From an uncultured Actinomycetota bacterium (lineage in GTDB: Bacteria; Actinomycetota; Actinomycetes; JAHEKZ01): a stretch of 64,000 bases of DNA. Location: assembly GCA_963726575.1 (NCBI GenBank), contig CAVSCR010000003.1, forward strand, positions 226,518-290,517, in the 5' to 3' direction. Each line of letters begins with the position of its first letter. Within the stretch, counting starts at the first letter, position 1. The notes beneath the pieces are model-generated. The model saw only the letters and a list, made by a program, of their open reading frames with translations, was not told the origin of the DNA and made no database searches. Of this stretch, positions 8,703-32,020 are shown in pieces. Both the position numbers and the translations under genes were made by a program.

Positions 8703-9293
8703 TCAAGGAACAGTGGTCGGCAACCAGTCGGGGCGAACGTCTTCGAAATCGGCGATGTCGTCAGCGTGGCGCAGGGTCAGCCCGATGTCATCGAGGCCCT
8801 CGAGCAGCCGCCATCTCGAATAGGGGTCCAGGTCGAAAGAGACGGTCTGGTCGGCATAGGCGACCGTCTCCGTGGCGAGGTCAACGGTGATCTCCGTGTC
8901 AGGCGAAGCCTCTACGACAGCCCAGATCTGCTCCACGACCTCTTCCGGAAGCTGGACTGCTAGCAACCCGCCCTTGAGCGAGTTACTGCGGAAGATGTCG
9001 GCGAACCTCGGTGAGATCACGACCCTGAACCCATAGTCCTGAAGAGCCCAGACGGCGTGCTCGCGCGAGGAACCCGTCCCGAACTCCGGACCCGCCACCA
9101 GGACTGAGGCTCCGGCGAACTGTGGCTGATTGAGGGCAAACTCGGGATCGGCCCTCCATGCAGCGAACAACCCGTCCTCGAAGCCGCTGCGCGTGATCCG
9201 CTTCAGATACACGGCGGGGATGATCTGATCGGTGTCGACGTTGCTTCGGCGCAGCGGCACCGCACGACCCGTGTGAACCGTGAACTTGTCCAT
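8703..9293 (-). CDS. leuD: 3-isopropylmalate dehydratase small subunit
   Basis: [26 protein letters not shown]... is canonical LeuD. Start taken at M36 of the track ORF. Confidence 0.9.
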
Positions 9294-9303
9294 GGTCTTG
9301 TCC

Positions 9304-10713
9304 TCACGCCTGCGGTTCGAGGTCTGCCGGGCTCGCCAGGTGGCCCAGTACCGCCGTGGCCGCGGCAACAACCGGTGACACGAGATGCGTACGTCCACCC
9401 TTGCCCTGGCGCCCTTCGAAGTTCCGGTTGGACGTCGAGGCGCTGCGCTCCCCCGGCGCCAGCTGGTCCGGGTTCATGCCCAGGCACATCGAGCAACCGG
9501 CTTGCCGCCACTCCGCTCCGGCCATGGTGAAGATGTCGTTGAGACCTTCCGCCTCGGCCTGCAGCCGGACCCGCACGGACCCGGGGACCACTAGCGTGCG
9601 GACCCCCGCGGCCACGTGTCGTCCCGACAACACGGCCGCGGCCGCTCGAAGATCCTCGATCCGCCCGTTCGTGCACGAGCCCACGAAGACCGTATCGACC
9701 GGGATCTCGCGCAACGGGGTACCGGGCGTCAAATCCATGTACTGCAGGGCACGTTCGGCGGCCACCCGCTGGAGCGGATCCTCGAACGAAGCAGGGTCAG
9801 GCACCGAACTCGACAACGGCGCGCCCTGGCCCGGGTTAGTGCCCCACGTGACGAAGGGGCTGAGCGACGCAGCGTCGATGACAACCTCCGCATCGAATCG
9901 CGCGTCGTCGTCGGTGCCCAGTGAGCGCCAGTAGCTCACGGCAGTCTCCCAAGCATCGCCGGTAGGTGCGTGCGGCCGCCCGCGTAGGTAGTCGAGCGTG
10001 GTGTCGTCCGGTGCCACCATCCCCGCCCGGGCACCGGCTTCGATCGACATGTTGCAGACGGTCATGCGCGCCTCCATCGAGAGCGCCCGCACCGCCGCGC
10101 CGCGGTACTCCAGGACGTAGCCCTGGCCACCCCCGGTTCCGATCTGCGCGATCACGGCCAGGATCAGATCCTTGGCGCTCACGTCGGGCGGCAGCTGGCC
10201 TTCGACGGTGATCGCCATCGTCTTGAAGGGGGTCAGCGGCAGCGTCTGGGTCGCCAGCACGTGCTCGACCTCGCTGGTTCCGATCCCGAACGCCAGTGCA
10301 CCGAACGCCCCGTGCGTGGCGGTGTGGGAGTCACCGCAGACGACCGTCATCCCCGGCTGGGTCAATCCGAGCTGAGGACCCACGACGTGGACGATCCCCT
10401 GCTCGGCCGAACCCAACGGGTAGAGCGGTACGCCGAACTCGGCACAGTTCGCGCGCAGTGCCTCCACCTGGGCCCGAGAGACGGGGTCACTGATCGGCTG
10501 GTCGATGTCCGTCGTCGGGACGTTGTGATCCTCGGTCGCCAGCGTCAGGTCGGTCCGGTGTACGACCCGGCCGGCCGCGCGTAGCCCGTCGAACGCCTGC
10601 GGGCTCGTCACCTCGTGGACGAGGTGGAGGTCGATGTACAGAAGATCGGGCTCGCCTTCCGCCGCGCGCACGACGTGCGCGTCCCAGACCTTCTGCGCGA
10701 GGGTGCGTCCCAC
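9304..10713 (-). CDS. leuC: 3-isopropylmalate dehydratase large subunit
   Basis: [14 protein letters not shown]...[24 protein letters not shown] and aconitase-family Cys ligands. Probable GTG start at 10713 with a GGAGAGGAG RBS; the track ORF starts at 10749. Confidence 0.9.
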
Positions 10714-10771
10714 GGCGACTCCTCTCCACGACCAACTTGCATCTCGCATATCGAGACTGCAGTATCAACTC
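10714..10771. promoter_or_regulatory. short divergent leuC / IclR-regulator intergenic region (candidate LtbR-type operator and promoters)
   Basis: 58 bp separate the divergent starts. It contains ttgcatctcgcatatcgagactgcagtatcaa with short inverted-repeat elements. Confidence 0.3.
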
Positions 10772-11491
10772 ATGGACAACTCTAGCGGAGTGGGCGTTCT
10801 GGACAAGGCCGCCCTCGTCCTCGGCGCGCTCGAGGCCGGTCCCCAGAGCCTGGCGGGCCTCGTCCAGGCGACCGGCCTCGCCCGGCCCACCGCCCACCGA
10901 CTGGCCGTGGCGCTGGAGTTCCACCGCCTGGTCGCTCGTGACGTCCAGGGTCGCTTCGTGCTCGGTCCTCGGGTGGGCGAGCTGGCCGCAGCCGCCGGCG
11001 AAGACCGACTGCTCGCTGCCGCAGCCGCCGTTCTCGCCCAGCTGCGGGATCTGACCGGCGAGAGCACCCAGTTGTACCGGCGACAAGGCGATCAACGGGT
11101 GTGTGTGGCCGCGGCCGAACGCCTCTCCGGGCTGCGGGACACGGTGCCCATCGGCAGCGTGCTCACCATGCAAGCCGGCTCGGCGGCGCAGATCCTGTTG
11201 GCCTGGGAAGAGGCTGACCGCCTGCACCGCGGTCTTCGAGGTGCCGCCTTCTCTGCGGCGACCTTGGGCGGTGTCCGACGCCGGGGCTGGGCGCAAAGCG
11301 TTGGCGAGCGCGAACCCGGCGTGGCATCGGTGTCCGCACCGGTGCGCGGTCCGAGTGGACGCGTGGTGGCTGCAGTGTCCATTTCTGGTCCCATCGAGCG
11401 GCTCGGCCGCCAACCGGGGCGACAACACGCCGCCGCGGTCGTCGCCGCCTCGAACGCCCTCACCGAGGCGTTGAGGCGCGCGAAGAACTGA
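10772..11491 (+). CDS. IclR family transcriptional regulator (LtbR-like, divergent from leuCD)
   Basis: N-terminal wHTH (VGVLDKAALVLGALEAGPQSLAGLVQATGLARPTAHRLAVAL) plus an IclR effector domain. Start at M47 of the track ORF. Same arrangement as Mtb Rv2989. Confidence 0.85.
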   Translation: MDNSSGVGVLDKAALVLGALEAGPQSLAGLVQATGLARPTAHRLAVALEFHRLVARDVQGRFVLGPRVGELAAAAGEDRLLAAAAAVLAQLRDLTGESTQLYRRQGDQRVCVAAAERLSGLRDTVPIGSVLTMQAGSAAQILLAWEEADRLHRGLRGAAFSAATLGGVRRRGWAQSVGEREPGVASVSAPVRGPSGRVVAAVSISGPIERLGRQPGRQHAAAVVAASNALTEALRRAKN

Positions 11492-13287: not shown

Positions 13288-13360
13288 TAGCCCCGACCGG
13301 ATTCGAACCGGCGCTACCGCCTTGAGAGGGCGGCGTGCTAGGCCGCTACACAACGGGGCC
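13288..13360 (-). tRNA. tRNA-Glu (anticodon CTC)
   Basis: The reverse complement GGCCCCGTTGTGTAGCGGCCTAGCACGCCGCCCTCTCAAGGCGGTAGCGCCGGTTCGAATCCGGTCGGGGCTA folds as a cloverleaf. Anticodon loop CTCTCAA, T-loop TTCGAAT. Confidence 0.85.
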
Positions 13361-13402
13361 GTACACAGGTCGACCGCTCCATCTGGGGAGCGTTCGGATC
13401 CG

Positions 13403-13474
13403 CTGGGGTACCAGGACTCGAACCTAGACTAACGGAGCCAGAATCCGTCGGGCTGCCAATTACCCCATACCCCA
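13403..13474 (-). tRNA. tRNA-Gln (anticodon CTG)
   Basis: The reverse complement TGGGGTATGGGGTAATTGGCAGCCCGACGGATTCTGGCTCCGTTAGTCTAGGTTCGAGTCCTGGTACCCCAG has a 7-bp acceptor stem, anticodon loop TTCTGGC and T-loop TTCGAGT. Confidence 0.85.
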
Positions 13475-16605: not shown

Positions 16606-18213
16606 TCAGACCTGGTCGCGCCCGGCGCGCAACAGGCCATAGGTGATGGCGTCTTCGAGCGCGTTCCACGAGGCGGCGATGACGTTCTCGTGGACGCCCA
16701 CGGTGTCCCACTCACCCTGCCCGTCGCTGGTCTCGATCAGCACCCTGGTCACGGCGGCGGTCCCCTCACGTCCCTCCAGGATCCGCACCTTGTAGTCGGT
16801 GAGCTCCAGCTGCGCCAGCTCGGGAAAGGCCTGGGCAAGCGCAGAGCGCAATGCGTTGTCCAACGCGTTGACGGGACCGTTGCCCTCACCGGTGGCGATG
16901 ATCCGCTGGTCGAGGGCGTGAACCTTCACCGTCGCCTCGCTCATCACCTCGCCATCAGCTCGCTGCTCGACGATCGCGCGCCACGACTCCACCCGGAAGT
17001 GGCGCCGCCGCTCGCCCGCCACCGTGTCGCGCAGTAGCAGCTCGAACGATGCGTCGGCAGCCTCGAACGTGTAGCCGCGGGACTCGAGGTCCTTGACCCG
17101 CTCGACCAGCCGGCCCAGGGCAGCGCGGTCGTCGGACAGGTCGTAACCGAGCTCCTTTCCCTTCAGCTCGATCGACGCCCGACCCGCCATCTCGGTGACC
17201 AGCACGCGCATGTCGTTGCCGACGACCTCGGGGTCGAGATGGTTGTACAGGTCAGGCGACACCTTGATCGCACTGGCGTGCAGGCCAGCCTTGTGAGCGA
17301 ACGCCGAGACCCCGACGAAGGGCTGATGGGTGTCGGGCGCGATGTTGGCGATCTCGGCGAGCGCGTGACTCACTCGCACCATCTCGCGCAGCCGACCGGC
17401 TGGCAGAACCCTCAGATCGAGCTTGGTCTCCAGGTCACCGATGACTGCGAAGAGGTCTGCGTTGCCCGTCCGCTCGCCATACCCGTTGGCGGTGCACTGG
17501 ACGTGCGTAGCCCCAGCTTCCACAGCCGTGACGGTGTTCGCTACGGCACAGCCGGTGTCGTCCTGGCAGTGGATCCCCAACCGACCTTGCCCCTTGCGCT
17601 CGGCCACCTCCGACACGACTTCGTGGACGCGCATGGGAAGCATTCCGCCGTTGGTGTCGCAGAGCACGCAGACGTCGGCGCCGGCCTCCATCGCAACCGC
17701 GATCACCTGGAGCGCGTAGCTGCTGTCGTGGTGGTACCCGTCGAAGAAGTGCTCGAGGTCGAGGAATACCCGACGACCCTCGGTCACGAGGAGCGAGACG
17801 GTGTCCGCCACCATCGCGAGGTTCTCCTCCAACGTCGTGCGCAACGCCTGCGTCACGTGGCGCACGTCGGACTTTGCCACGAGGGTCACGACCGGTGTCT
17901 GCGCGTCGAGCAGGGCCCGCACCTGCGGATCCTGATCGACCTTCGTCCCCGGCTTGCGGGTGGCCCCGAAGGCCACGAGCTGCGCATGAGTCAGGGAGAG
18001 CTCCGCTCGGGCCCGCTCGAAGAACTCAGTGTCCTTGGGTAGTGCACCGGGCCACCCGCCCTCGATGAAGCCCACGCCCAGCTCGTCGAGGAGGCGCGCC
18101 ACCGCCAGCTTGTCGGGAACCGAGTACGTGATGCCCTCCCGTTGTGCCCCGTCGCGCAGCGTCGTGTCATAGACGTGGAACACGTCGTCGGGTGGGGCGA
18201 CAGGGGCGGTCAC
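16606..18213 (-). CDS. cimA: (R)-citramalate synthase (LeuA-related, CimA type)
   Basis: HVYDTTLRDGAQ, the GGWPGALPKD signature of the CimA/LeuA_rel clade, and a C-terminal regulatory domain. GGAGG RBS with GTG start at 18213. Confidence 0.8.
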   Translation of the reverse strand: MTAPVAPPDDVFHVYDTTLRDGAQREGITYSVPDKLAVARLLDELGVGFIEGGWPGALPKDTEFFERARAELSLTHAQLVAFGATRKPGTKVDQDPQVRALLDAQTPVVTLVAKSDVRHVTQALRTTLEENLAMVADTVSLLVTEGRRVFLDLEHFFDGYHHDSSYALQVIAVAMEAGADVCVLCDTNGGMLPMRVHEVVSEVAERKGQGRLGIHCQDDTGCAVANTVTAVEAGATHVQCTANGYGERTGNADLFAVIGDLETKLDLRVLPAGRLREMVRVSHALAEIANIAPDTHQPFVGVSAFAHKAGLHASAIKVSPDLYNHLDPEVVGNDMRVLVTEMAGRASIELKGKELGYDLSDDRAALGRLVERVKDLESRGYTFEAADASFELLLRDTVAGERRRHFRVESWRAIVEQRADGEVMSEATVKVHALDQRIIATGEGNGPVNALDNALRSALAQAFPELAQLELTDYKVRILEGREGTAAVTRVLIETSDGQGEWDTVGVHENVIAASWNALEDAITYGLLRAGRDQV

Positions 18214-18227
18214 GACTGCCTCCAGGA

Positions 18228-18312
18228 ATGAAAAGACCCCCCGCAGGAGCGAGAGGTCGGCGCGCCAGGCGAACTGCCTGACGCGCTATCCGATGATGAT
18301 CAGTGGGCGCAT
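18228..18312 (-). promoter_or_regulatory. putative Ile-responsive attenuator upstream of cimA: 8-codon leader ORF MRPLIIIG (about 18286..18312), an 11-bp GC hairpin, then a short stem plus U-run directly before the cimA RBS
   Basis: Minus-sense reads atg cgc cca ctg atc atc atc gga tag, then GCGCGTCAGGCagttcGCCTGGCGCGC, then gacctctcgctcctgcggggggtcttttc, then cattcctggaggcagtc GTG. Confidence 0.5.
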
Positions 18313-18353
18313 CACCGGCAGTCTGACACACCCCGGGCCGAGGGGGACACCGT

Positions 18354-19511
18354 CTACGGCGCTTCGATCACGTGCATCCACCCGTGCACGTCCGGCACAG
18401 TGCCGTGCTGCAACCCGAGCAAGTGCGCTCGCAGTCGGGTCGTCACCGGTCCTGGTGCGCCGTCACCGACGCGCCAGCCGCCGTGGCTGGCCTTGACTTC
18501 GCCCACCGGCGTGATGACTGCCGCCGTCCCGCACGCGAAGACCTCAGAGATCGAGCCGTCCTCGTTCCCGGCCCGCCAGTCGCTGACGTTGATCCGGCCC
18601 TCCTCCGCCGACATGCCGAGGTCCCGCGCCACGGTGAGGAGCGAGTCCCGCGTCACGCCGGGGAGAAGGGCGCCGGTCAGCGACGGAGTCACGAGGCGGG
18701 CGGCGTCGCCGGTGCCGTACACGAAGTACAGGTTCATGCCCCCCATCTCCTCGACCCATCGACGTTCCACGGCGTCCAACCACACCACCTGGTCGCAGCC
18801 CTGCTCGGCCGCCTGCGCCTGCGCGATGAGCGACGCGGCATAGTTCCCGGCACACTTCGCCTCGCCGGTGCCACCGGGAGCCGCCCGCACGTACTCCTCC
18901 GACAGCCAGACCGACACCGGCTTGACGCCGCCGCGGAAGTACGCGCCCGCCGGCGAGGCGATGAGCAGGAACAGGTAGGACGAAGCGGGTTTCACGCCGA
19001 GTCCCACCTCGGTCGAGATCATGAACGGTCGCAGGTAGAGGCTGTGCTCCTGGTCGGCCGGCACCCACGCCCGGTCCGCCCGCACCAGAGCCTCGATGGC
19101 GGCCACGAACAGACCTTCGGGTAGCTCCGGCATCGCAAGTCGCCTGGCTGATCGCTGGAAGCGCAGGGCGTTCATGTGCGGTCGGAACGTCGCGATGGAA
19201 CCGTCAGAGCGCCGGTAGGCCTTCAGCCCCTCGAAGATCTCCTGGCCGTAGTGCAGGGCCATCGTCGCCGGATCGAGCTCCAAGGGGCCGTAGGGGACGA
19301 GTTGGGCGTCGTGCCAACCGCGACCCTCCGTCCAGCCGATGGTCACCATGTGGTCGGTGAAGTACCTCCCGAAGCCTGGATCGGCCAGGATGGCCGCCCG
19401 CTCCGCATTCGACAGCGGCGACGAGGTCGGCTTCAGCGCGATCGTCTTGGCGGCTTCGGCCGGCGCCATGGACTGCTCTCCCATGGACGGACGGTACCCC
19501 GTGCCGCCCAC
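18354..19511 (-). CDS. ilvE: branched-chain-amino-acid aminotransferase
   Basis: Class IV aminotransferase fold ([30 protein letters not shown]...). Directly follows leuB. Confidence 0.92.
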
Positions 19512-20567
19512 TCAGCGCGGCCCGTCGACGACGCGCGCGGCCAGGGCGTCACCGATCTGTGTCGTGGAGCGTTGGACCGATCCGCGCGCCGCCAGGTCGG
19601 CCGAGACCGCCGCTTCGACGGCAGCCGCTGCCTCGGCGTGGCCGAGGTGGTCCAACAGCAACGCCACCGACAAGACGGTGGCGGTCGGGTCAGCGACCCC
19701 CTGTCCCGCGATGTCAGGTGCCGACCCATGCACCGGCTCGAACATGCTGGGATTGGTGCGGGTCATGTCCAGGTTGCCGCTTGCCGCACGTCCGATGCCG
19801 CCAGCGATGGCAGCGCCGATGTCAGTGATGACGTCGCCGAACAAGTTGTCGGTGACAACGACGTCGAACCGCTCCGGAGCAGTCACGAAGAACATGCTCG
19901 CCGCATCCACATGCTGATACTCGGTCTCGACCTCGGGGTACTCAGCGGACACCCGGACAAAGGTTCGCGTCCACAAACCGCCGGCGTGCGTCATCACGTT
20001 GTTCTTGTGCACCAGTGTCAGTTTGCGTCGTGGCCGATTGCTCGCACGGCGGAACGCATCACGAATCACCCGCTCACAGCCGAACGCCGTGTTCAGGCTC
20101 TCCTCGGTCGCGACCTCCTCGGGCGTGTCCCGACGCAGCACGCCGCCCGCGCCCGCGTAGGGACCTTCGGTTCCTTCGCGAACCACGACCATGTCGATGT
20201 CGGCCGGTCCCTTGCCGGCCAGCGGCGTCGACACGCCTGGGTAGAGCCGCACCGGACGCAGGTTCACGAAGTGGTCCAGTGCGAAGCGCAGCTTGAGCAG
20301 CAAACCTCGCTCGAGCACCCCGCTGGGCACGCTCGGATCGCCCACCGCACCCAGGAGGATCGCGTCGTGTTCGCGGATCTCCGACAGCACGGAGTCGGGC
20401 AGCGTCTCGCCGCTGGCGTGCCACCGTCGAGCTCCCAGGTCGTACTCGGTCGGCTCGAACGCCAGCCCGTAACGGTCGGCTACGGCGTCCAGGACCTTGC
20501 GGCCCTCGGCCACCACCTCAGGCCCGATGCCGTCGCCGCCGATCACGGCCAGCCGGTAGTCCGTCAT
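19512..20567 (-). CDS. leuB: 3-isopropylmalate dehydrogenase
   Basis: [19 protein letters not shown]...; isocitrate/isopropylmalate dehydrogenase family. Confidence 0.92.
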
Positions 20568-20641
20568 GGGGCCACAGCGTATTGGCGCATCTTGGCCTTC
20601 GAACGCTCTGCCCGCGGACTGAGACGGCAGCCAGGGAGCTC

Positions 20642-21883
20642 TCAGCGACCCGCACCGGAGGGGGTCGGTGAGCCGTCAGTCAGCGGCGTCGCAACGTCGT
20701 GGGCTGCGGTCCTGAAGGTCCAGGCGATCGAGGCGAGGAGGGTGAGGAGGAGCAAGATGTCGATGCTGCCGAGGAGGAACTGCGGCGGTGAGTTCCGGTA
20801 GGTGTGCACCACGAGCCACACCACCCGCCCCAGCAGCACGGCGCCGAGCGTGACCGCCAGCCACCGGATCTGCCAGTACCTCCGGTCGGTGCCCAGGCGT
20901 ACCGAGGCGACCAGCAGTGGCAGGATGAAGATCCAGTGGTGGATCCAGCTGACCGGTGAGATCGCAAGCATCCCAGCCATGGCGACCGCTTCGGCCAACC
21001 ATGGCCGGCGCCTCACGACGTTGTGGGCGGTCCACAGCACCATGGCGGCCACCAGCAGCGCGCAGCAGGACCAGAGCGCCTGGTCGTGGACCGGGTAGTG
21101 CTGCCAGCGCACGATCAGGCCGTTGATCGACTGGTTGCTGACATACCCCAACCCGAAGCGCGACAGATCGGAGACGTCCCCGAACCAGAAGTCGGCCGAC
21201 GCTGCCGGCATTGCCACGAACGCTGCCGCGGTGATCCCGAGGAACGTGGCGGCGGCCCAACGCGCGTCGCGGATCCGACGAACGGCCAGGAAGTACGCGA
21301 TCAGGAACAACGGCGTCAGCTTCAGCGCCGCAGCCACGCCGACCATCACCCCGCGAGGCAGGCGTGGCCAAGCCCCGCACAGATCCGCGAGCACGAGCAG
21401 GACGATCAACACATTGATCTGGCCGGTCCCAAGGCCAACACGCAGCGGGTCGGACACGGCGACGAGCACGAAGACCATCAAGCGCCAGGTCGGGTCGGCG
21501 GCGATTGCCGGGGAGGCATACCGGTCAAGCGTCAGCCGCACGACGAACCACAGTCCGACCAGGGAGGTGAGGGTCCATCCAAGTTGCGCCAACCCCTGCG
21601 GCACAGGGGAGAGCGGGAAGAACAGCAACGCCGAGACCGGCGGGTACGTGAAGGGGTACCCCGAGCCGGTCACCAGCCCGTTGTAGAGGTGATGACCACT
21701 CAGCGCCGCCGCGCCGCCGGCGCGGTAAACGGCAAGGTCCAGCTCATAGCCCTGCCACGCGTGCACCAGGTAGCCGGCACAGACCGCCGCAGCGCCCAGG
21801 ACCAGCAAGCCCCGGGCCGGCCGGCCCCAACCCCCGACCCACTCGGCCCGCACCGCACGCACCCTACGCCGGAGGCCGCGCAT
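20642..21883 (-). CDS. polytopic membrane protein, DUF2029/GT87-like glycosyltransferase (polyprenyl-phosphate-sugar dependent, PimE-like)
   Basis: 413 aa with about 10 predicted TM segments and no soluble domain. Sits between leuB and serA, which are adjacent in Mtb. Confidence 0.6.
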
Positions 21884-21913
21884 GGCGGCTTGTCGTCGGC
21901 ACGCGCGTGCCGA

Positions 21914-23497
21914 CTACAGGTCGATCGTTCGCCCGTCGTGGGCGCTGATCCCGGCAACGATCAGCTCGGTGACCTCCGCCGGAATCACGGAGTCCACGGT
22001 CAGGGCGATCAGGGCGTGTCCGCCGAGGGACGTGCGGCTCACCTGCATCCCGGCGATGTTGATGTCGTGCTCGCCGAGGATCCGACCGACGGTGCCGACC
22101 ACGCCGGGCTTGTCGTGGTAGCGAAAGAACGCGAGGTGGCTGGCCGGAGCGATGTCCACGTCGAACCCATCGATCTCCACGAGCTTCTCGACGTCCTTCG
22201 GCCCCGAAAGGGTCCCCGACACCGACACCTGTCGGCCGTCGGCCAACGCACCGCGAACGATGAGCAGGTTCCGGTGATCGGGACTGTCCCCGTCGACGAC
22301 GAGGTTGATCACCACACCACGCTCAGCGGCAAGCAGCGGCGCGTTCACGTAGGACACATGCTCGTCGACGATCCCGTCGAAGACGCCCTTCAGAGCGGCC
22401 AGCTCGAGCACCTTGACATCCGCAGCAGCGAGCTCGCCTCGCGCCTCCACGGTCAGCCCCTCAGGGGCGCCCCCGGCCAGCCCGGTGAAGACGGCGCCGA
22501 GCTTCTCGGCCAGTGCAATGAAGGGTCGGACGTCCTCCTCGATCACGCCACCCTCGACGTTGACCGCGTCGGGAACGAGCTCGCCCGAAAGCGCCAGCCG
22601 CACCGATCGGGCGACTGCGATGCCCGCCTTCTCCTGTGCCTCATCGGTGCTCGCTCCCAGGTGCGGCGTCGCCACGACGCGCTCCAGTGCGAACAGGGGC
22701 GAATCCGTGCAGGGCTCCTTGGCATACACGTCGACGCCGGCTCCCCACACGCGACCCGTCGAGATCGCCTCAGCCAGGGCTTGCTCGTCGACGATGCCAC
22801 CGCGGGCGGCATTCACGATGATCACCGTCGGCTTGACGAGCGACAGCTGTTCCTCGCCGATCAAGCCGACCGTCTCCGGCGTCTTGGGCAGGTGCACCGT
22901 GATGAAGTCGCTCTGTCGCAGCAACGTGTCCAGTGGGACGAGCGTCACCCCCATCTGGGCAGCGCGGGCCGGCTGCACATACGGGTCGTACGCGATCACA
23001 TTGGTACCGAACGCGAGTAGACGCTGTGCGGCCAGCTGTCCGATCCGGCCGAGGCCGACCACGCCGACCGTCTTCCCGTACACCTCGATGCCGGTGTACC
23101 GGGATCGCGCCCACTCTCCGCGCCGCAGGGCAGCGTCCGCTTGAGGGATGTTGCGTGCAGCGGCCAGCAACAAGGCCACAGCCAGCTCCGCCGCGCTGAC
23201 GATGTTCGAGGTCGGCGCATTCACGACCATCACGCCAGCCTGGGTGGCAGCTGCGACGTCGACGTTGTCCAGCCCCACGCCCGCACGGGCGACCACCCGC
23301 AGCTTCGACGCAGCAGCCAGCACGTCGGCGTCGACCCGAGTGGCGCTGCGCACGAGGATCGCGTCGACGTCGCGCACGCAGGCCAGCAGCTCGGCCCGAT
23401 CGGCACCGTTGCAGTGCCGCACCTCGAAGTCCGGCCCCAGGGCCTCGAGGGTGGCCGGCGACAGCTCCTCGGCGATGAGGACCACGGGTCGGGTCAC
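21914..23497 (-). CDS. serA: D-3-phosphoglycerate dehydrogenase (long form with ASB and ACT domains)
   Basis: 527 aa with the 2-hydroxyacid DH catalytic and NAD domains (GVVGLGRIGQLAAQRL) plus a C-terminal ACT domain. Confidence 0.93.
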   Translation of the reverse strand: MTRPVVLIAEELSPATLEALGPDFEVRHCNGADRAELLACVRDVDAILVRSATRVDADVLAAASKLRVVARAGVGLDNVDVAAATQAGVMVVNAPTSNIVSAAELAVALLLAAARNIPQADAALRRGEWARSRYTGIEVYGKTVGVVGLGRIGQLAAQRLLAFGTNVIAYDPYVQPARAAQMGVTLVPLDTLLRQSDFITVHLPKTPETVGLIGEEQLSLVKPTVIIVNAARGGIVDEQALAEAISTGRVWGAGVDVYAKEPCTDSPLFALERVVATPHLGASTDEAQEKAGIAVARSVRLALSGELVPDAVNVEGGVIEEDVRPFIALAEKLGAVFTGLAGGAPEGLTVEARGELAAADVKVLELAALKGVFDGIVDEHVSYVNAPLLAAERGVVINLVVDGDSPDHRNLLIVRGALADGRQVSVSGTLSGPKDVEKLVEIDGFDVDIAPASHLAFFRYHDKPGVVGTVGRILGEHDINIAGMQVSRTSLGGHALIALTVDSVIPAEVTELIVAGISAHDGRTIDL

Positions 23498-23730
23498 GGC
23501 GCGTCAACGTCCTTCGCAGTAGTGGAGCCGGCGATTCTACTGAGCAGGTGAGGACGTTCCTCGGCCGGCGGGTGCGTCGAGGAGATCTGCTTGGACACGG
23601 CCAGGCATCACGTCGTCGCCGTGCGTGATCACGGTCGACTGCGCGGGTGGGCTGGCCTGACCCGATGCCGAAGCACCCCCGGCCGTGGGGCACCCTTGGT
23701 CGCCAGACAAGGTCGGACAAGGGGTGGACG

Positions 23731-26700
23731 TTGCGTAGGAGTCGACGCGCGAGGGTGTCGGTCGCCCGTCGGCGCGCCCTCGCGGGACTCGCCGCCCTGG
23801 TCGTCGCCGCCTTCGTCGGTGGCCTGCTGCCGCTGACACCGTGGGCTCCCTCGTGGGTCGCGCCCGTGGCCGCGGCCGCCGGCCCGGCCATTCCAGGCAC
23901 CGTGTCCGATCGCCCCGACGACCACACCCTCAGCGCGGCCAACGGCGAGGTGCGCGCGCTGGCACAGGTCGGCAACCGCATCTATCTCGGCGGCACATTC
24001 ACCAAGGTCGGGCCCGCGCGGTTGGGCGCCGCTGGCGTTCTCCAGACGCGTCACCGCGCCTTCAGCGGGCACTTCCCTGATGTCTCCGGCGTGGTCTATG
24101 CGGCGGCGGCCGACGGTCACGGCGGTTGGTACCTCGGGGGAAGCTTCACCACGGTGGGCGGCGCGTCTCGAGCCAACCTCGCTCACGTCCTGGCCAACGG
24201 GCGGGTGGCGCGCTGGAGTCCGCACCCCAACGGCGCCGTCAGAGCGCTCACCCTGACCCGCAGCGGCGTCGTCGTCGGCGGCGACTTCACCACCATGTCG
24301 GGGCGGCCGGCCGGGCACCTGGTCAGCCTCGCGTTGCGCACCGGCCACATCCGGTGGGACGCCGCCCTGGACGACTCCGCCCTGAGTCTCGCCCTGAGCT
24401 CGGACCAGAGGACCGTCTACGTCGGAGGCGCGTTCACCCACGCACGCGTGACTGTGCGCCGCGGGCTCCTGGCGCTGAGCGCGCGATCGGGCCGGCTGGA
24501 CCGGCGGTTCCACCCGAGTGTGGACGGGCCCGTCCGGGCGCTTGCGGTCGACGGCAAGACCGTCTGGCTGGGCGGTGATTTCACCTCGGTGGCCGGTCGG
24601 CCGCATCGCCATCTCGCGGCCGTGACGACCTCGGGGACGCCGCGCCGGAGCCCGAGCACGGACGCAGCGGTGCTGGCGCTGGTCATCGACCGAGGTCACC
24701 ACCGGGTGTTCCTGGCAGGCAAGTTCGGCCGCGTGGCCGGCCTGAGGCGACCGCGCCTGGCAGCCGTGTCGACGACGACTGGCAAGCTGGGCCGGATCCA
24801 CCTGACCCACCCCAGCGGTGAAGTCCGCGCGCTGAGCATCAGTCACGGGAGCCTCATCCTGGCCGGGGACTTCCAGGACAGCCCGGTCAAGACGGCTCCC
24901 GGCGTGCTGGCGCAGATCCCGCTGAACTCCGCGGCAGTCCGGCATGCCGTCCCGTTCGAGGCAGCACCCGCCTCCATGAGTCGGCCCAGCCGGGACGGGG
25001 GCGGCGTCTACGCGCTGGCCACCGGGCTGTCGGGACGCGTTCTGGTGGGCGGCGACTTCTCCGACTACGGGCTGGTCACCCGACGGCACCTGGCGGCGTT
25101 CAACGCCGACACCGGGGCACTCGACCGTACGTTCCGTCCGCGCGTCGACGGTCCGATCTACACGCTGAAGTCCACACCCAGCGGCCAGGCGCTGTTCCTC
25201 GGCGGCGCGTTCCACACCGTCGACAGGTTGGCCCGCAAGAACCTGGCCCGCATCGGCTCGGTTCGTGGCGAACTCGACAAGGTCTTCCGGGCCGACACCA
25301 ACGCCTTCGTCAAGGACATGGCCGTGTCGAGCAACGGACGCCTGTACGTGGCAGGCCCGTTCGTCACGCTCGGCGGAGCGCCGGCTCGGCATCTCGCAGC
25401 GCTATCGGCCACCACCGGACACCTCCTGGGCGGCTTCACCATGCCGGTCACGAGGCCCACCAACGAAGTCAGCGACGGAGTCCGGGCCATCGCCTTGTCC
25501 CCGGATGAGCAGACCCTGGCAGTCGTCGGCAACTTCCGCCGCGTCGGTGGCATCGATCGACCGCTGGTGGCGCTGATCGATGTGGGGGTCACCCCGGCCA
25601 AGGTGCGCGCGTGGCGAACCACGTTGTATGACACGCCCTGCGCAGCTGGCCGGGTTGGTCGGATGCGCGACGTCGCCTTCTCACCAAATGGATCGCAGCT
25701 GTTCGTCGTGAGCGCCGGAACATACAACCCGCCTGCTTGTGACTCGGTCAATGCCTTCCCAGTCGTTCCCAACCATGCCGATGTGACACCACAGTGGACC
25801 GCGCGGATAGGCGACAGCATCGAGACCGTCATCGCAGCCCCGGGCACGGTGTACCTGGGCGGCCACTTCCGCGTCATCGACCGCACCACATGGACCGACC
25901 CTCGGTACCACCTCGCCGCGCTGGACTCCGCCACGGGTCGACCCCTCTCCTGGCAGCCGAACGCCAACGGGTTCCGGGGCGTGCGCGAGCTCGAGATGGG
26001 TCCCTCGGGGCTGTTGGTCGGTAGCGACGCGAAGGCGTTCGCCCAACTGCCCCACGGACGAGTCGCCGTGTTCGCGCCGGCCCCCCCGGGGCTGTCCGTG
26101 CGGGTGACCGGCAGCCGGGCCTGGGTACCACCGGCCGGCGCCTCCGTCACCTTCGACGTCACCTTGAGCAACACCTCTGGCGCCGCACTTGCCGTGAACG
26201 GCCTCACCGACAGCCACCTCGGCAACCTCGACGGAGTGGGGACCTGCGCCGTGCCGGCGACGATCATGGCCGGGTCGTCGTACGAGTGCCACTACGCCGC
26301 GATCGTCAGTGGCAAGGCGGGCAGCGGTGTCAAGCACACGGTCACCGCAAGCACCGGCGCGGCGACCGCCAGCGACACGGTCAAGACCACGATGGTCGCC
26401 CACGTCCCCACGGTCCGGCTCTCGGCGAGGACTGCCCCGATCCGGGTGCCGCGTGCCGGTGCGCGGATCCGGATCGGAGTGACGCTCACCAACGTCGACC
26501 CCGTCAGCTCGGTCGTCATCAAGACGCTCGCCTCGAACCGCTGGGGCGACCTCACCTCCACCTGCGGGTTCCCCAAGACCGTCGCGCCGAACGCCAGCGT
26601 CTGGTGCCGCCTCGACCCACGCGTCGGCGGCGCGCCCGGGACCTCTGTCCCCTTGCGGTTCAGCGCCACGGGGACGGTCGGCACCCACTCCTTCAGCGCC

Positions 26701-26733
26701 GCAGGTCAGGTGCGCGTGCGGGTGGCGGGGTAG
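23731..26733 (+). CDS. large secreted repeat protein: about 11 beta-propeller-type repeats (delta-60 / DUF5122-like, G-G-x-F-T-x-V-G-G-x-x-R-x-x-L-A) plus two C-terminal DUF11/Ig-like modules
   Basis: Track ORF 23647..26733. An RR-rich signal peptide (RRSRRARVSVARRRALAGLAALVVAAFVGG) follows the TTG at 23731 or GTG at 23755. Repeats recur every 45-50 aa (VYLGGTFTKVGPARLGAAGV, WYLGGSFTTVGGASRANLAHV, VWLGGDFTSVAGRPHRHLAAV, ...). The tail has two Cys-pair modules (VTFDVTLSNTSGAALAVNGLTD...CAVP...YEC and IGVTLTNVDPVSSVVIKTLAS...CGFP...WC). Confidence 0.75.
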   Translation: MRRSRRARVSVARRRALAGLAALVVAAFVGGLLPLTPWAPSWVAPVAAAAGPAIPGTVSDRPDDHTLSAANGEVRALAQVGNRIYLGGTFTKVGPARLGAAGVLQTRHRAFSGHFPDVSGVVYAAAADGHGGWYLGGSFTTVGGASRANLAHVLANGRVARWSPHPNGAVRALTLTRSGVVVGGDFTTMSGRPAGHLVSLALRTGHIRWDAALDDSALSLALSSDQRTVYVGGAFTHARVTVRRGLLALSARSGRLDRRFHPSVDGPVRALAVDGKTVWLGGDFTSVAGRPHRHLAAVTTSGTPRRSPSTDAAVLALVIDRGHHRVFLAGKFGRVAGLRRPRLAAVSTTTGKLGRIHLTHPSGEVRALSISHGSLILAGDFQDSPVKTAPGVLAQIPLNSAAVRHAVPFEAAPASMSRPSRDGGGVYALATGLSGRVLVGGDFSDYGLVTRRHLAAFNADTGALDRTFRPRVDGPIYTLKSTPSGQALFLGGAFHTVDRLARKNLARIGSVRGELDKVFRADTNAFVKDMAVSSNGRLYVAGPFVTLGGAPARHLAALSATTGHLLGGFTMPVTRPTNEVSDGVRAIALSPDEQTLAVVGNFRRVGGIDRPLVALIDVGVTPAKVRAWRTTLYDTPCAAGRVGRMRDVAFSPNGSQLFVVSAGTYNPPACDSVNAFPVVPNHADVTPQWTARIGDSIETVIAAPGTVYLGGHFRVIDRTTWTDPRYHLAALDSATGRPLSWQPNANGFRGVRELEMGPSGLLVGSDAKAFAQLPHGRVAVFAPAPPGLSVRVTGSRAWVPPAGASVTFDVTLSNTSGAALAVNGLTDSHLGNLDGVGTCAVPATIMAGSSYECHYAAIVSGKAGSGVKHTVTASTGAATASDTVKTTMVAHVPTVRLSARTAPIRVPRAGARIRIGVTLTNVDPVSSVVIKTLASNRWGDLTSTCGFPKTVAPNASVWCRLDPRVGGAPGTSVPLRFSATGTVGTHSFSAAGQVRVRVAG

Positions 26734-26748
26734 ACGCACCGCTCAGGG

Positions 26749-30127
<3,379 letters not shown>

Positions 30128-30151
30128 CGGGTTCCTTCTGTCGTCGGGCAC

Positions 30152-30189
30152 GAAAAAACCCCTCCGACCCGTTGGGTCCGTCGAGGGGC
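30152..30189 (-). terminator. GC-rich hairpin plus U6 (intrinsic terminator/attenuator) about 14 nt upstream of the ilvB RBS
   Basis: Minus-sense reads CCCCTCGACGGACCCaacGGGTCGGAGGGG TTTTTT cgtgcc; an inner perfect stem GACCC/GGGTC and an outer stem CCCCTC/GAGGGG. Confidence 0.55.
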
Positions 30190-30212
30190 AGCGCGCGGAT
30201 GGACGAATCGGC

Positions 30213-30254
30213 TCAGGCCGCGCGCCGTCCGATTACGAGGAGAAGCTTCCGCAC
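30213..30254 (-). promoter_or_regulatory. putative ilvBNC leader peptide [16 protein letters not shown] (GTG start), carrying a Leu-Leu-Leu-Val-Ile regulatory codon run
   Basis: Minus-sense reads gtg cgg aag ctt ctc ctc gta atc gga cgg cgc gcg gcc tga. It ends about 24 nt before the terminator hairpin. Style resembles the Streptomyces ilvB leader (MRTRILVLGKRVG). A perfect 16-bp palindrome GCCCGCTGCAGCGGGC lies just upstream. Confidence 0.5.
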
Positions 30255-30337
30255 CTCGCCAGGGTCCGCCCGCTGCAGCGGGCGCGTCAAGTTTGCGAGA
30301 CAGCCATCTCATGATGCGAGACCCACGGACGAACCGC

Positions 30338-32020
30338 CTAGTCGAGCACAGCTCCCTGAGCCGCCGAGCCGACCAGCCGTGCGTACTTGCCGAGCACACC
30401 GTGCGTATACCGCGGCTCCGGCGGCTTCCAGCCGACACGGCGCCGATCGAGCTCGCTCGGGTCGACCAGCAGGTCGAGGCTGCGAGCGGCCATGTCGAGG
30501 CGGATCCGGTCGCCGTCGGCCACGAGCGCGATCGGACCTCCGTGCGGCGCCTCGGGAGCGACGTGCCCGATGCAGAACCCGGCGGTAGCGCCGGAGAAGC
30601 GGCCGTCGGTCACGAGCATGACGTCCTTGCCGAGACCGGCACCCTTGATCGCGGCCGTGACGGCGAGCATCTCGCGCATTCCGGGGCCACCCATCGGGCC
30701 CTCGTACCGGATGATCACGGCGTCACCCTGCTCGATCTGCCCCGATGTCACCGCGGCCATCGCATCCACCTCGTCGTCGAACACGCGAGCCCGCCCCTCG
30801 AACATAGGCCGGTCGATGCTGGCCGCCTTGATCACCGCACCCTCTGGCGCCAGCGATCCCTTCAAGATCGCCAGGCCGCCGCTGCTGTGAATCGGCGCAC
30901 TGAGGGGGTGCACCACCACGCCATCGGGCGACGGCGGCGCCAGCTCGGCGAGGTTCTCCGCCAGAGTTCGACCGGTCACGGTGAGTACGTCACCGTGCAG
31001 CAGACCCGCGCCGAGCAGCTCGGCCATCACCATGGGGACACCCCCGACGCGGTCGATGTCGTTCATCACGAACCTGCCGAACGGCTTGACGTCGGCGAGG
31101 TGTGGCGTTCGGTCGCCGATGCCGTTGAAGTCGTCGATGCTCAGCTCGACGCGCGCTTCGTGGGCGATGGCCAAGAGGTGAAGCACCGCGTTCGTCGATC
31201 CGCCGAGCGCCATCGTCACGGCGATCGCGTTCTCGAACGCCTCGCGCGTCAGGATGTCTCGTGTCGTGATCCCACGACGCAGCAGCTCCACCAGGGCCTC
31301 ACCGGAGCGGAAGGCGAACTCGTCGCGGCGTTTGTCGACCGCCGGCGGGGCGGCACTCCCAGGAAGCGACATTCCCAGCGCTTCGCCGATGCTGGCCATG
31401 GTGTTGGCGGTGAACATGCCACCGCAGGCACCCTCACCCGGACACGCATTGCGCTCGATCTCGTCGAGCTCACCTCTGGTGATCCGGCCGAGCGCGCACG
31501 CACCCACCCCTTCGAAGACGTCCTGGATGGTGACGTCACGCCCGGCCACGCGTCCGGGAAGGATCGACCCTGCGTACACGAACACGCTGGCCACGTCGAG
31601 CCGGGCGGCGGCCATGAGCATGCCGGGGAGCGACTTGTCGCAGCCCGCGAACGTCACCATGCCGTCGAGTCGTTCGGCGTGCATCACGGTCTCAACCGAG
31701 TCGGCGATCACCTCGCGGCTGACTAGCGAGGCCCGCATGCCCTCGTGGCCCATCGAGATCCCGTCTGAGACCGAGATCGTGTTGAACTCCATCGGGAACC
31801 CGCCGGCGGCGAAGACTCCCTCCTTCGCCTTCACCGCGAGCCGCTTCAGCGACAGGTTGCACGGCGTGATCTCGTTCCAGGACGACGCGATCCCGACCTG
31901 TGGCTTGTCCCAGTCATCGTCGGTCATCCCCACCGCGCGCAGCATCGCGCGCTGCGGGGCTCGTTCCATGCCTTCGGTGACGTCCTTGCTGCGCGGCTTG
32001 AGATCCGGGCGCTCTGTCAT
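30338..32020 (-). CDS. ilvD: dihydroxy-acid dehydratase
   Basis: 560-aa IlvD/EDD family with Fe-S Cys ligands ([18 protein letters not shown]). Confidence 0.93.

Follow-up and report, generated by a model that had tools for sequence, protein, structure and literature searches.

The ilvD–ilvB Spacer and Its Features

The element described here lies between ilvD and ilvB in a 64,000-nucleotide (nt) stretch of DNA from an uncultured Actinomycetota bacterium (contig CAVSCR010000003.1; hereafter the window, whose own numbering is used throughout). It occupies 30254–30153 on the minus strand, which is the coding strand, and directly adjoins ilvB, the first gene of an ilvBNC operon. On this strand, the ilvD stop codon TAG (30340–30338) is followed by a 210-nt spacer and then by the ilvB start codon ATG at 30127. 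The flanking genes ilvD, ilvB, ilvN, and ilvC each score above their curated NCBIfam cutoffs. Situated within the spacer are a putative operator and promoter, a 13-codon leader open reading frame (ORF) bearing a run of branched-chain amino acid (BCAA) codons, a stem termed hairpin A, and a predicted terminator. The most economical reading of this arrangement, to which we assign a probability of about 0.8, is a transcription attenuator of ilvBNC that has its own promoter and operator inside the spacer and operates as a codon-dependent switch through hairpin A. Its parts, and the two flanking genes, are as follows.

30338–32020, minus strand: ilvD, dihydroxy-acid dehydratase, the upstream neighbor (NCBIfam PRK00911, 865 bits against a cutoff of 644).
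30306–30322, minus strand: 17-base-pair (bp) operator palindrome GTCTCGCATCATGAGAT, a putative site for an IclR-type regulator of the NdgR/LtbR/AreB kind (exact match to GTCYCR-N5-YGRGAY).
30296–30301, minus strand: third half-site GTCTCG, separated by 4 nt from the palindrome upstream and by 5 nt from the −35 hexamer downstream (Streptomyces loci have GTCCCA at the same position).
30285–30290, minus strand: −35 hexamer TTGACG of the predicted leader promoter (conserved geometry).
30267–30284, minus strand: perfect 18-bp palindrome CGCCCGCTGCAGCGGGCG (CGCCCGCTG/CAGCGGGCG) that makes up the whole −35/−10 spacer (inverted repeat; predicted to be untranscribed).
30261–30266, minus strand: −10 hexamer GACCCT of the predicted promoter, with A at position 2 and T at position 6, 6 nt before the GTG (conserved geometry).
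30213–30254, minus strand: leader ORF of the ilvL type, 13 codons plus TGA (homologous ORFs in 57 other loci).
30218–30227, minus strand: 5′ arm of hairpin A, CGGCGCGCGG, formed by the last leader codons (C GGC GCG CGG; inverted repeat, RNAalifold, and covariation).
30189–30198, minus strand: 3′ arm of hairpin A, CCGCGCGCTG, whose final base doubles as the opening base of the terminator hairpin.
30159–30188, minus strand: terminator hairpin CCCCTCGACGGACCC-aac-GGGTCGGAGGGG, with a lower stem CCCCTC/GAGGGG, an upper stem GACCC/GGGTC, and a conserved core CCCTC...GAGGG.
30153–30158, minus strand: U6 tract, followed by a conserved CGTGCC motif (sequence and comparison).
30132–30139, minus strand: ilvB ribosome-binding site (RBS) AGAAGGAA (sequence).
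28382–30127, minus strand: ilvB, acetolactate synthase large subunit, from ATG 30127 (NCBIfam PRK07789, 1110 bits against a cutoff of 881).

The leader ORF begins with GTG at 30254–30252, continues with CGG AAG CTT CTC CTC GTA ATC GGA CGG CGC GCG GCC, and closes with TGA at 30215–30213, precisely the 13-codon frame that an earlier note on this DNA had pointed out. Its five consecutive BCAA codons, CTT CTC CTC GTA ATC (LLLVI), span 30245–30231. Such a frame is unusual against shuffled sequence: A closed ORF with at least five consecutive I, L, or V codons arose in 0.26% of shuffles of the spacer, and a scan of the entire 64-kb window for such an ORF followed by a G-rich stretch and T4 returned only the leader ORF and one other site. 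A longer ORF from TTG 30290 (MTRPLQ...) was rejected, because this TTG is the −35 hexamer itself. The spacer had previously been given as 186 bp; counted to the ATG as the ilvB start, it measures 210 nt.

Between the leader ORF and ilvB lies a predicted Rho-independent terminator, composed of a hairpin of −17 kcal/mol (including a flanking closing G-U pair) and the U6 tract. The hairpin (30188–30159) begins 24 nt past the leader stop codon, at the distance given in the earlier note, T6 follows it (30158–30153), and the gap from the U-run to the ilvB ATG is 25 nt. The choice of ATG 30127 as the ilvB start also holds up as the better one, given the presence of an RBS and an MTE N-terminus common to the related locus L009. 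The upstream GTG is rightly disfavored, since it sits in a conserved post-terminator motif; its position is 30151–30149, 1 nt beyond the U-run and not inside it, as had been thought. This motif, (G/C)(T/G/A)TG(C)C, is found directly 3′ of the U-run (window 30147–30152) in most leaders of ilvB and of the citramalate synthase gene cimA, where it takes the forms GTTGCA, GTTGCC, CGTGCC, and CATGxC, with UUGUUG in Corynebacterium. It may serve the terminator as a downstream element, or represent a start codon that has become vestigial.

Taken singly, the folding energies of the region are unexceptional for DNA of 69% G+C (z-scores of −1.3 to −1.9), and in so G+C-rich a context the single-sequence z-scores were not used as evidence. 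A generic promoter and terminator scan of the region detected nothing, an outcome traced to the non-consensus −10 hexamer and to an internal loop in the terminator stem, and thus to a limit of the scan as opposed to an absence of the elements. The significance of the arrangement therefore rests on comparison with other loci.

Conservation of the Leader and of Hairpin A

Relatives were collected by scanning one genome per species with the IlvB protein, and the 80 nearest actinobacterial loci were retained. Among GTDB representatives, the highest IlvB identity is 79%, so the source organism has no close representative; the nearest loci belong to uncultured Actinomycetota metagenome-assembled genomes, Nanopelagicales, Nocardioides, and Actinomadura. 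Most upstream regions share a common layout, in which a short ORF, whose final residues read ...(I/L)(L)V(I/L/V) G/P x R (V/A) x stop, is followed by a hairpin A with a GCGCG/CGCGC core, then by a CCCTCG...CGAGGG terminator, and lastly by T5–7. The leaders read MRTRILVLGKRVG in Streptomyces, MKSRLLVVIGRRVGA in Mycobacterium, MNQNELLVIGRRVVA in Rhodococcus, MALLLVLPRRAA in Janibacter, and ..ILVVLGRRAG in Actinomadura; further aligned examples are ..LLVVIGRRVGA and ..ELLVIGRRVVA. The resemblance to the Streptomyces ilvB leader that had been remarked upon thus amounts to homology, which extends to the mycobacterial and Rhodococcus leaders, and the suggested comparison with relatives finds the peptide conserved in the 57 other leader-bearing loci. 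At the positions of the run, substitutions remain within I, L, and V while the codons change, indicating selection on the codon class.

The leaders of 24 other actinobacterial ilvB loci, with the window excluded, served to build a covariance model, R1. It matches the window at 30153–30242 on the minus strand with 62.3 bits (E = 1.7e-13) over its full length (model positions 1–90 of 90). Exactly one match lies upstream of ilvB in 61 of the 80 other loci, and the score of the window is mid-range among them. This match, the identity of the flanking ilv genes, and the homologous leaders together sustain the central claim of the earlier note, namely a leader-peptide attenuator of ilvBNC.

The distribution of the module bears on an explanation that the earlier note had itself named as its refutation, in which the hairpin and U6 serve only as the ilvD terminator and ilvB is transcribed from an independent promoter farther downstream. 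The hairpin does lie 150 nt past the ilvD stop codon on the same strand, and read-through from ilvD would meet it. Yet about 35 loci that have no ilvD upstream carry the ORF, hairpin A, and terminator ahead of ilvB, whereas such a hairpin is missing from the Microbacteriaceae, in which ilvD abuts ilvB: Their ilvD–ilvB spacer is short and contains no leader ORF, hairpin A, or terminator (loci L060, L063, L065, L066, L070, L072, L073, L075, and L079). Furthermore, the conserved promoter sits upstream of the leader ORF, and no promoter-like site was found in the 25 nt from the U-run to the ATG. Judged by its distribution, the element tracks ilvB and not ilvD, and in the Microbacteriaceae the attenuator would be either lost or never present. 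An ilvD terminator is thus contradicted by the sequence comparison, and we regard it as very improbable.

Hairpin A, which does not figure in the earlier note, is conserved, covarying, and fixed in its spacing. In the window, its helix comprises 10 bp (−20.3 kcal/mol), the leader stop codon begins 2 nt past its 5′ arm, and a single base, the G at 30189, is common to both hairpins. RNAalifold recovers hairpin A on an unrefined MAFFT alignment. On that alignment its covariation score is 0.337, compared to 0.146 with shuffled partners (0 of 500 shuffles reach 0.337) and to at most 0.094 with slid partners. In the 62-sequence model alignment, 93% of hairpin A cells are paired, 7 of its 10 pairs change on both sides, and the covariation of the whole structure, hairpin A plus terminator, is 0.354 versus 0.166 with shuffled partners. 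The spacing is equally regular. In 43 of 58 loci, the BCAA run ends 5 nt upstream of the GCGCG core; in 42 of 57, the stop codon starts 0–7 nt after the 5′ arm of hairpin A; and in 57 of 58, the 3′ arm of hairpin A ends −2 to +2 nt from the first terminator base. Because it is the only conserved structure available, and because its position matches the description of the Mycobacterium tuberculosis antiterminator, we infer by analogy that hairpin A is the antiterminator.

Conceivably, hairpin A could instead be a ligand- or protein-binding RNA, for example a riboswitch for guanosine tetraphosphate (ppGpp) or a regulator site, with the ORF being incidental. Its GCGCG/CGCGC core and the CCCTC/GAGGG base are near-invariant across the phylum, beyond what base pairing needs, and ppGpp riboswitches are known on some ilvB genes of other phyla (PMC10272879). 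However, hairpin A has the form of a plain helix, its loop varies in length (5–49 nt) and in sequence, no pocket is conserved, and the invariant CGC-G also reads Arg-(Val/Ala) in frame, which places it under a double constraint. The Corynebacterium homologue displayed no ppGpp-induced structural change by in-line probing (PMC10272879). A search of 29000–31500 against Rfam 15 with E values up to 10 produced only chance-level matches to unrelated small RNA families, and a search of the whole window at the Rfam gathering thresholds recovered two tRNAs only and no leader family. We give such a binding RNA hardly any credence.

The Leader Promoter and Its Operator

Aligned at the leader start codon, 54 of the 58 leader-bearing loci (the window and the 57 others) possess a TTGAC-like −35, a gap of 17–18 nt, an nAnnnT −10, and, 6–8 nt further on, the in-frame start codon; the window reads TTGACG-18 nt-GACCCT-6 nt-GTG. 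This conserved geometry places the predicted transcription start on the start codon itself, and hence predicts a leaderless leader ORF. With its −10 ending 6 nt before the GTG, the window has a GAGG that adjoins the GTG with zero spacing, too close to provide a usable Shine–Dalgarno sequence. Judging from these sequence features, translation from a leaderless mRNA is most likely. Consistent with this, 5′-end RNA sequencing detected leaderless transcription of the homologous ilvL in Streptomyces lividans (PMC8079986).

The promoter geometry also settles the status of the palindrome that fills the −35/−10 spacer. Previously described as 16 bp long and proposed as a pause hairpin or a protein site, it is a perfect 18-mer (30284–30267). 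Lying upstream of the predicted transcription start, it would exist as DNA and not as RNA, and so cannot be a pause hairpin. The window contains two perfect 18-bp palindromes where 0.83 are expected by shuffling, and the −35/−10 spacer is non-palindromic in most other loci. Compatible with chance and not conserved, the palindrome was rejected as an operator, and the proposed protein site finds no support; it is treated here as a chance occurrence, or at most as a lineage-specific protein site.

A better operator candidate is the 17-bp palindrome located at about −68 to −52 relative to the predicted transcription start. Matches to GTCYCR-N5-YGRGAC with no more than two mismatches are present in 34 of 55 ilvB leader promoters, compared to 1.2% of control windows, and in 28 loci the operator stands exactly 15 nt from the −35. 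Among these same 55 promoters, the mycobacterial loci keep the leader and lack the operator. The only other exact match in the window is at 10741–10757, in the 52 bp that separate leuC from a divergently oriented gene (10772–11488) for an IclR-family regulator with HTH_IclR and IclR_C domains. By analogy, its position beside leuC is that of ndgR, ltbR, and areB: As with those regulators, the gene diverges from leuCD with a 17-mer of this type in between. In Streptomyces coelicolor, NdgR binds the ilvB promoter in vitro and shows a chromatin immunoprecipitation (ChIP) sequencing peak over it, and also binds the ilvD, leuB, and ndgR-leuC promoters (PMC4340878). The ChIP motif reported there, TCCCACCCACTTGAC (PMC4340878), corresponds, in the Streptomyces loci, to the third half-site together with the −35. 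The published NdgR motif is a 15-bp GTCCAC-N3-xGGAC and is not identical to the window's arrangement, a 17-bp GTCYCR-N5-YGRGAC accompanied by a third half-site. NdgR-type control therefore probably extends to the ilvB leader promoter, in line with known biology.

A Model for Codon-Dependent Attenuation

In the mechanism that we favor, transcription would start on the G of GTG 30254 or no more than one base away from it, and an IclR-type (NdgR/LtbR-like) regulator would probably modulate the promoter from the operator at 30322–30296. The 5′ end of the RNA would be translated directly, in leaderless fashion, into the 13-residue leader peptide. As long as the tRNAs for Leu, Val, and Ile are charged, the ribosome would reach the TGA and hold the 5′ arm of hairpin A inside itself; with hairpin A blocked, the terminator hairpin and U6 would halt RNA polymerase 25 nt before ilvB. 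When a BCAA-tRNA is scarce, the ribosome would stall on CUU CUC CUC GUA AUC with its leading edge just short of hairpin A, which in the window starts 3 nt after the BCAA run, its GCGCG core following 5 nt after the run. Hairpin A would then form and hinder the lowest base pairs of the abutting terminator, permitting read-through into ilvBNC. Blocking a terminator that is barely overlapped would demand either kinetic competition for 1–4 junction nucleotides or steric hindrance by the attached helix. The second possibility, in which a helix attached directly to the terminator 5′ arm would hinder closure of the lowest terminator pairs, is our own suggestion.

Two characterized relatives behave in keeping with this scheme. 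M. tuberculosis ilvB1 produces an abundant terminated leader transcript of ~120 nt and its upstream ORF (uORF) is translated; replacement of LVVI by AAAA leaves expression low and abolishes induction by chlorflavonin, an acetolactate synthase inhibitor, and the model derived there has a ribosome at the stop codon mask the antiterminator (PMC13236596). The Corynebacterium ilvB-II motif, made up of two hairpins and a uORF, mediates repression in rich medium and is unresponsive to ppGpp (PMC10272879).

Compatibility of the Two Hairpins

The earlier note had envisaged classical Leu/Val/Ile-tRNA-dependent attenuation. The part of that claim that stands is the attenuator itself, codon-dependent in its M. 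tuberculosis homologue (PMC13236596); the part that does not is the set of overlapping alternative hairpins, which folding fails to predict. Structure prediction of alternative pairings, one of the checks suggested at the time, found no extensive overlap of terminator and antiterminator, either here or in most relatives.

Partition functions were computed with the ribosome-covered bases masked and the ribosome placed at every codon, and several of the results weigh against the mechanism outlined above. Over free and stalled states of 57 loci, the median terminator-core probability is 0.96, and in only 5 of the 57 does it drop below 0.5 when the ribosome is stalled. In the window it is 0.68–0.70 in the free and early-stalled states and 1.0 with the ribosome at the stop codon, a change in the right direction, albeit a small one. 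Hairpin A plus the full terminator reaches −34.7 kcal/mol, versus −28.0 kcal/mol for an extended hairpin A plus a truncated terminator, a gap of 6.7 kcal/mol. The predicted overlap between antiterminator and terminator is 1 nt plus a weak 2-bp extension, and coexistence is what folding predicts. As both hairpins can coexist, their mutual exclusivity is left unexplained by nearest-neighbor thermodynamics. To these results must be added that a ribosome stalled at GUA or AUC, the last two codons of the run, would cover part of hairpin A, that the −10 hexamer GACCCT is weak and non-consensus and eluded the generic promoter scan, and that codon substitutions in the S. coelicolor ilvB leader were reportedly without effect, according to the mention of Craster (1999) in PMC1262725.

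Three other pairings were considered and rejected. Leader codons CUUCUCC can pair with GGAGGGG of the terminator 3′ arm, as a "1:4" antiterminator or as a mimic of the 5′ arm; the pairing belongs to the minimum-energy fold predicted for the free RNA of the window, and Streptomyces could form it too. By inspection, it shrinks to only 4 bp in Mycobacterium, and acI loci with GUG GUG AUU codons keep the same terminator. It was rejected as a conserved device for lack of conservation and because a stalled ribosome would cover the segment, giving the wrong regulatory sign. Only in Mycolicibacterium does hairpin A extend without a break into the base of the terminator via the Gly codon (GG:CC); in the window, Streptomyces, and Actinomadura, this extension is weak or broken up by internal loops, and Nocardioides and Pseudonocardiales lack it. 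Lastly, a pseudoknot between the hairpin A loop and the terminator 5′ arm would have only 4 complementary bases in the window, by inspection.

If folding predicts no alternative structure that removes the terminator, one might suppose that it is a constitutive partial terminator, a "dimmer," with BCAA control exerted by the NdgR/LtbR-type regulator at the operator and the ORF serving only to load ribosomes or stabilize the RNA. The conservation of the operator at a fixed distance from the −35 would suit this proposal, as would the presence of NdgR on the S. coelicolor ilvB promoter in vivo (PMC4340878) and the ineffective leader codon substitutions in that species, insofar as PMC1262725 relates the work of Craster (1999). 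Conversely, the I/L/V run is kept phylum-wide by within-class substitutions, pointing to selection on codon identity; a related leader upstream of cimA, a gene of the Ile pathway, holds Ile codons only; mycobacterial loci retain the leader without the operator; and the LVVI to AAAA replacement abolishes induction in M. tuberculosis (PMC13236596). A dimmer is unlikely in our estimation, and codon-dependent attenuation through hairpin A remains the preferred account.

How hairpin A might act without sharing an arm with the terminator invites a more general, tentative proposal, which we consider possible but on balance doubtful: The actinobacterial ilvB-type attenuator may be an "abutting-hairpin" device that involves no alternative base pairing at all. 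Helix A, 0–2 nt upstream of the first terminator pair, would prevent the last terminator pairs from closing in the RNA exit channel of the polymerase. Alternatively, it would bring the stalled ribosome, parked at the base of the helix, against the polymerase. In either form, the position of the ribosome would switch termination without a shared arm. Such a device would explain the fixed distances of 5 nt from run to hairpin and 0–2 nt from hairpin to hairpin, the failure of thermodynamic models to capture exclusivity, and the reuse of an Ile-only module at citramalate synthase.

Relation to Known Attenuators

Among the closest known systems is ilvB1NC of M. tuberculosis (Eckartt et al., 2026; PMC13236596). 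There, too, a short translated ORF precedes ilvB(1)NC and is followed by a hairpin that arises from the 3′ end of the ORF, called the antiterminator in that work, and then by a Rho-independent terminator. The M. tuberculosis leader contains LVVI where the window has LLLVI, and both continue G-R-R-(V/A). Mycobacterial leaders (e.g., MKSRLLVVIGRRVGA, locus L054) align with that of the window and match the same covariance model. The window differs in belonging to another, uncultured lineage, in having ilvD directly upstream, and in possessing a putative IclR-type operator, which the mycobacterial loci do not have. In Mycolicibacterium, hairpin A reaches 3–4 bp into the terminator, in comparison with the overlap of 1 nt plus the weak GG:CC extension in the window. 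The M. tuberculosis ilvB1 uORF was reportedly also described by D'Halluin in 2023.

Streptomyces ilvL (MRTRILVLGKRVG; Seliverstov, 2005, PMC1262725; Droste, 2021, PMC8079986), located upstream of ilvBNC or ilvBHC, likewise encodes 13 residues with an I/L-L-V-I/L-G-x-R-V/A pattern. It has a leaderless start (PMC8079986), as predicted for the window, and shares the GCGCG hairpin, the CCCCTCG...CGAGGGG terminator with T6, and the arrangement of operator and −35. The hairpin A loop spans 33–49 nt in Streptomyces and 19 nt in the window, and the distance from terminator to ilvB is 130–250 nt compared to 25 nt. A further difference from the codon-dependent switch proposed here is the S. coelicolor regulatory-codon mutation, which lacked a phenotype in the account cited in PMC1262725.

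Corynebacterium falls outside the 80 nearest loci and was compared by means of a published alignment. An attenuator of Corynebacterium glutamicum ilvBNC is said to have been reported by Morbach in 2000. The ilvB-II motif of this genus (Narunsky, 2023; PMC10272879) resembles the window in its I/L/V-rich uORF ending ..RR.., in its repression in rich medium, and in a GGCGC...AAGCGCC hairpin fused to a GCCCTCG...CGAGGGC terminator that is followed by UUGUUG. Its leader peptide, similarly, is produced without an RBS. Peculiar to Corynebacterium are an outer pairing P1 (CGAC/GUCG) around the BCAA codons and a 3-nt overlap of hairpin A and terminator.

The enterobacterial ilvBN and ilvGMEDA leaders obey the same logic, in that translation of BCAA codons decides whether a Rho-independent terminator forms. 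Escherichia coli leaders have a Shine–Dalgarno sequence and a 5′ untranslated region (UTR), encode longer peptides, and contain many more regulatory codons. Their overlapping 1:2, 2:3, and 3:4 hairpins exclude each other thermodynamically. The window has none of these traits, with neither a 5′ UTR carrying a Shine–Dalgarno sequence nor shared-arm hairpins, nor any sequence homology. Exclusion of the enterobacterial, shared-arm type is not predicted for its RNA, where the terminator core stays at a probability of 0.68–1.0 at every position of the ribosome.

Neighboring Genes and an Ile-Only Leader Upstream of cimA

The ilvB leader belongs to a larger BCAA gene supercluster on the minus strand (window 16606–32020) that includes ilvD, ilvB, ilvN, ilvC ... 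leuB (20567–19512), ilvE, and cimA. It also holds serA (23497–21914), a mannosyltransferase-like gene (21883–20642), and two ORFs with no NCBIfam match (25681–26739 and 23629–25392). Elsewhere in the window lie leuC, a likely leuD, and the IclR regulator gene (8703–11491), as well as two tRNA genes (13288–13474).

R1 has a second match in the window, at 18231–18303 on the minus strand (22.4 bits, E = 0.0013), between ilvE (19511–18354) and cimA (18213–16606). The latter encodes citramalate synthase (TIGR00977, 635 bits against a cutoff of 450). A leader ORF starts here at ATG 18312, continues CGC CCA CTG ATC ATC ATC GGA, and ends at TAG 18286, encoding MRPLIIIG. As in the ilvB leader, the run is spaced 5 nt from a GCGCG hairpin (GCGCGTCAGGC/GCCTGGCGCGC, 18286–18260), which is abutted by a second hairpin, GACCTCTCGC-tcct-GCGGGGGGTC (18258–18235), with T4, followed by an RBS and the GTG of cimA. 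No clear upstream copy of the operator was seen at the window's own cimA leader; in some metagenomic loci, an operator-type palindrome does lie ahead of the promoter of the cimA leader (L096, GTCCCAGCATGTGAGAC; L139, GTCCCAACATGCGGGAC; both at ~1010–1030).

A metagenome scan with CimA yielded 70 loci with enough upstream sequence, of which 39 have an Ile-run leader with a terminator (40 of 71 when the window is included). The 32 distinct peptides include MLSSIIIT, MHDLVIIT, and MTNAVVIIG; nearly all of the leaders end in TAG directly followed by CGCG, and all have a −10-like hexamer 5–8 nt upstream. The ilvB-derived model detects 25 of the 26 cimA leader loci to which it was applied and none of seven controls in which ilvE abuts cimA. 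On freshwater acI-type contigs, ilvE is fused to cimA (TAATG overlap) and the Ile leader is lacking. Judged by its sequence, the cimA leader looks like an Ile-specific copy of the same module, placed on the pyruvate route to isoleucine. No description of an Ile-only cimA leader was found in the literature searched, and it may be the more novel item in the window.

Implications

The ilvB element itself is an ordinary, well-preserved case of a known and recently validated attenuator family, and as such is not surprising. Beyond what had been remarked upon earlier, the analysis adds an antiterminator candidate, a predicted leaderless promoter, a putative operator, the non-role of the 18-bp palindrome, and the finding that the hairpins abut as opposed to overlap. 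For annotation, the comparison points to ATG 30127 as the start of ilvB, to a 13-codon leader gene that had gone unannotated, and to a promoter and operator for ilvBNC that appear separate from ilvD.

The exclusivity of antiterminator and terminator that published models assume is not reproduced by standard folding, which poses a testable mechanistic question for the family as a whole. One compact module, in which a leaderless ORF with BCAA codons is followed by a GCGCG hairpin and, abutting this, a CCCTC/GAGGG terminator, extends from Streptomyces and Mycobacterium to the freshwater acI lineages. Its workings also have medical relevance, as ilvB1 attenuation affects the fitness of rifampicin-resistant M. 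tuberculosis.

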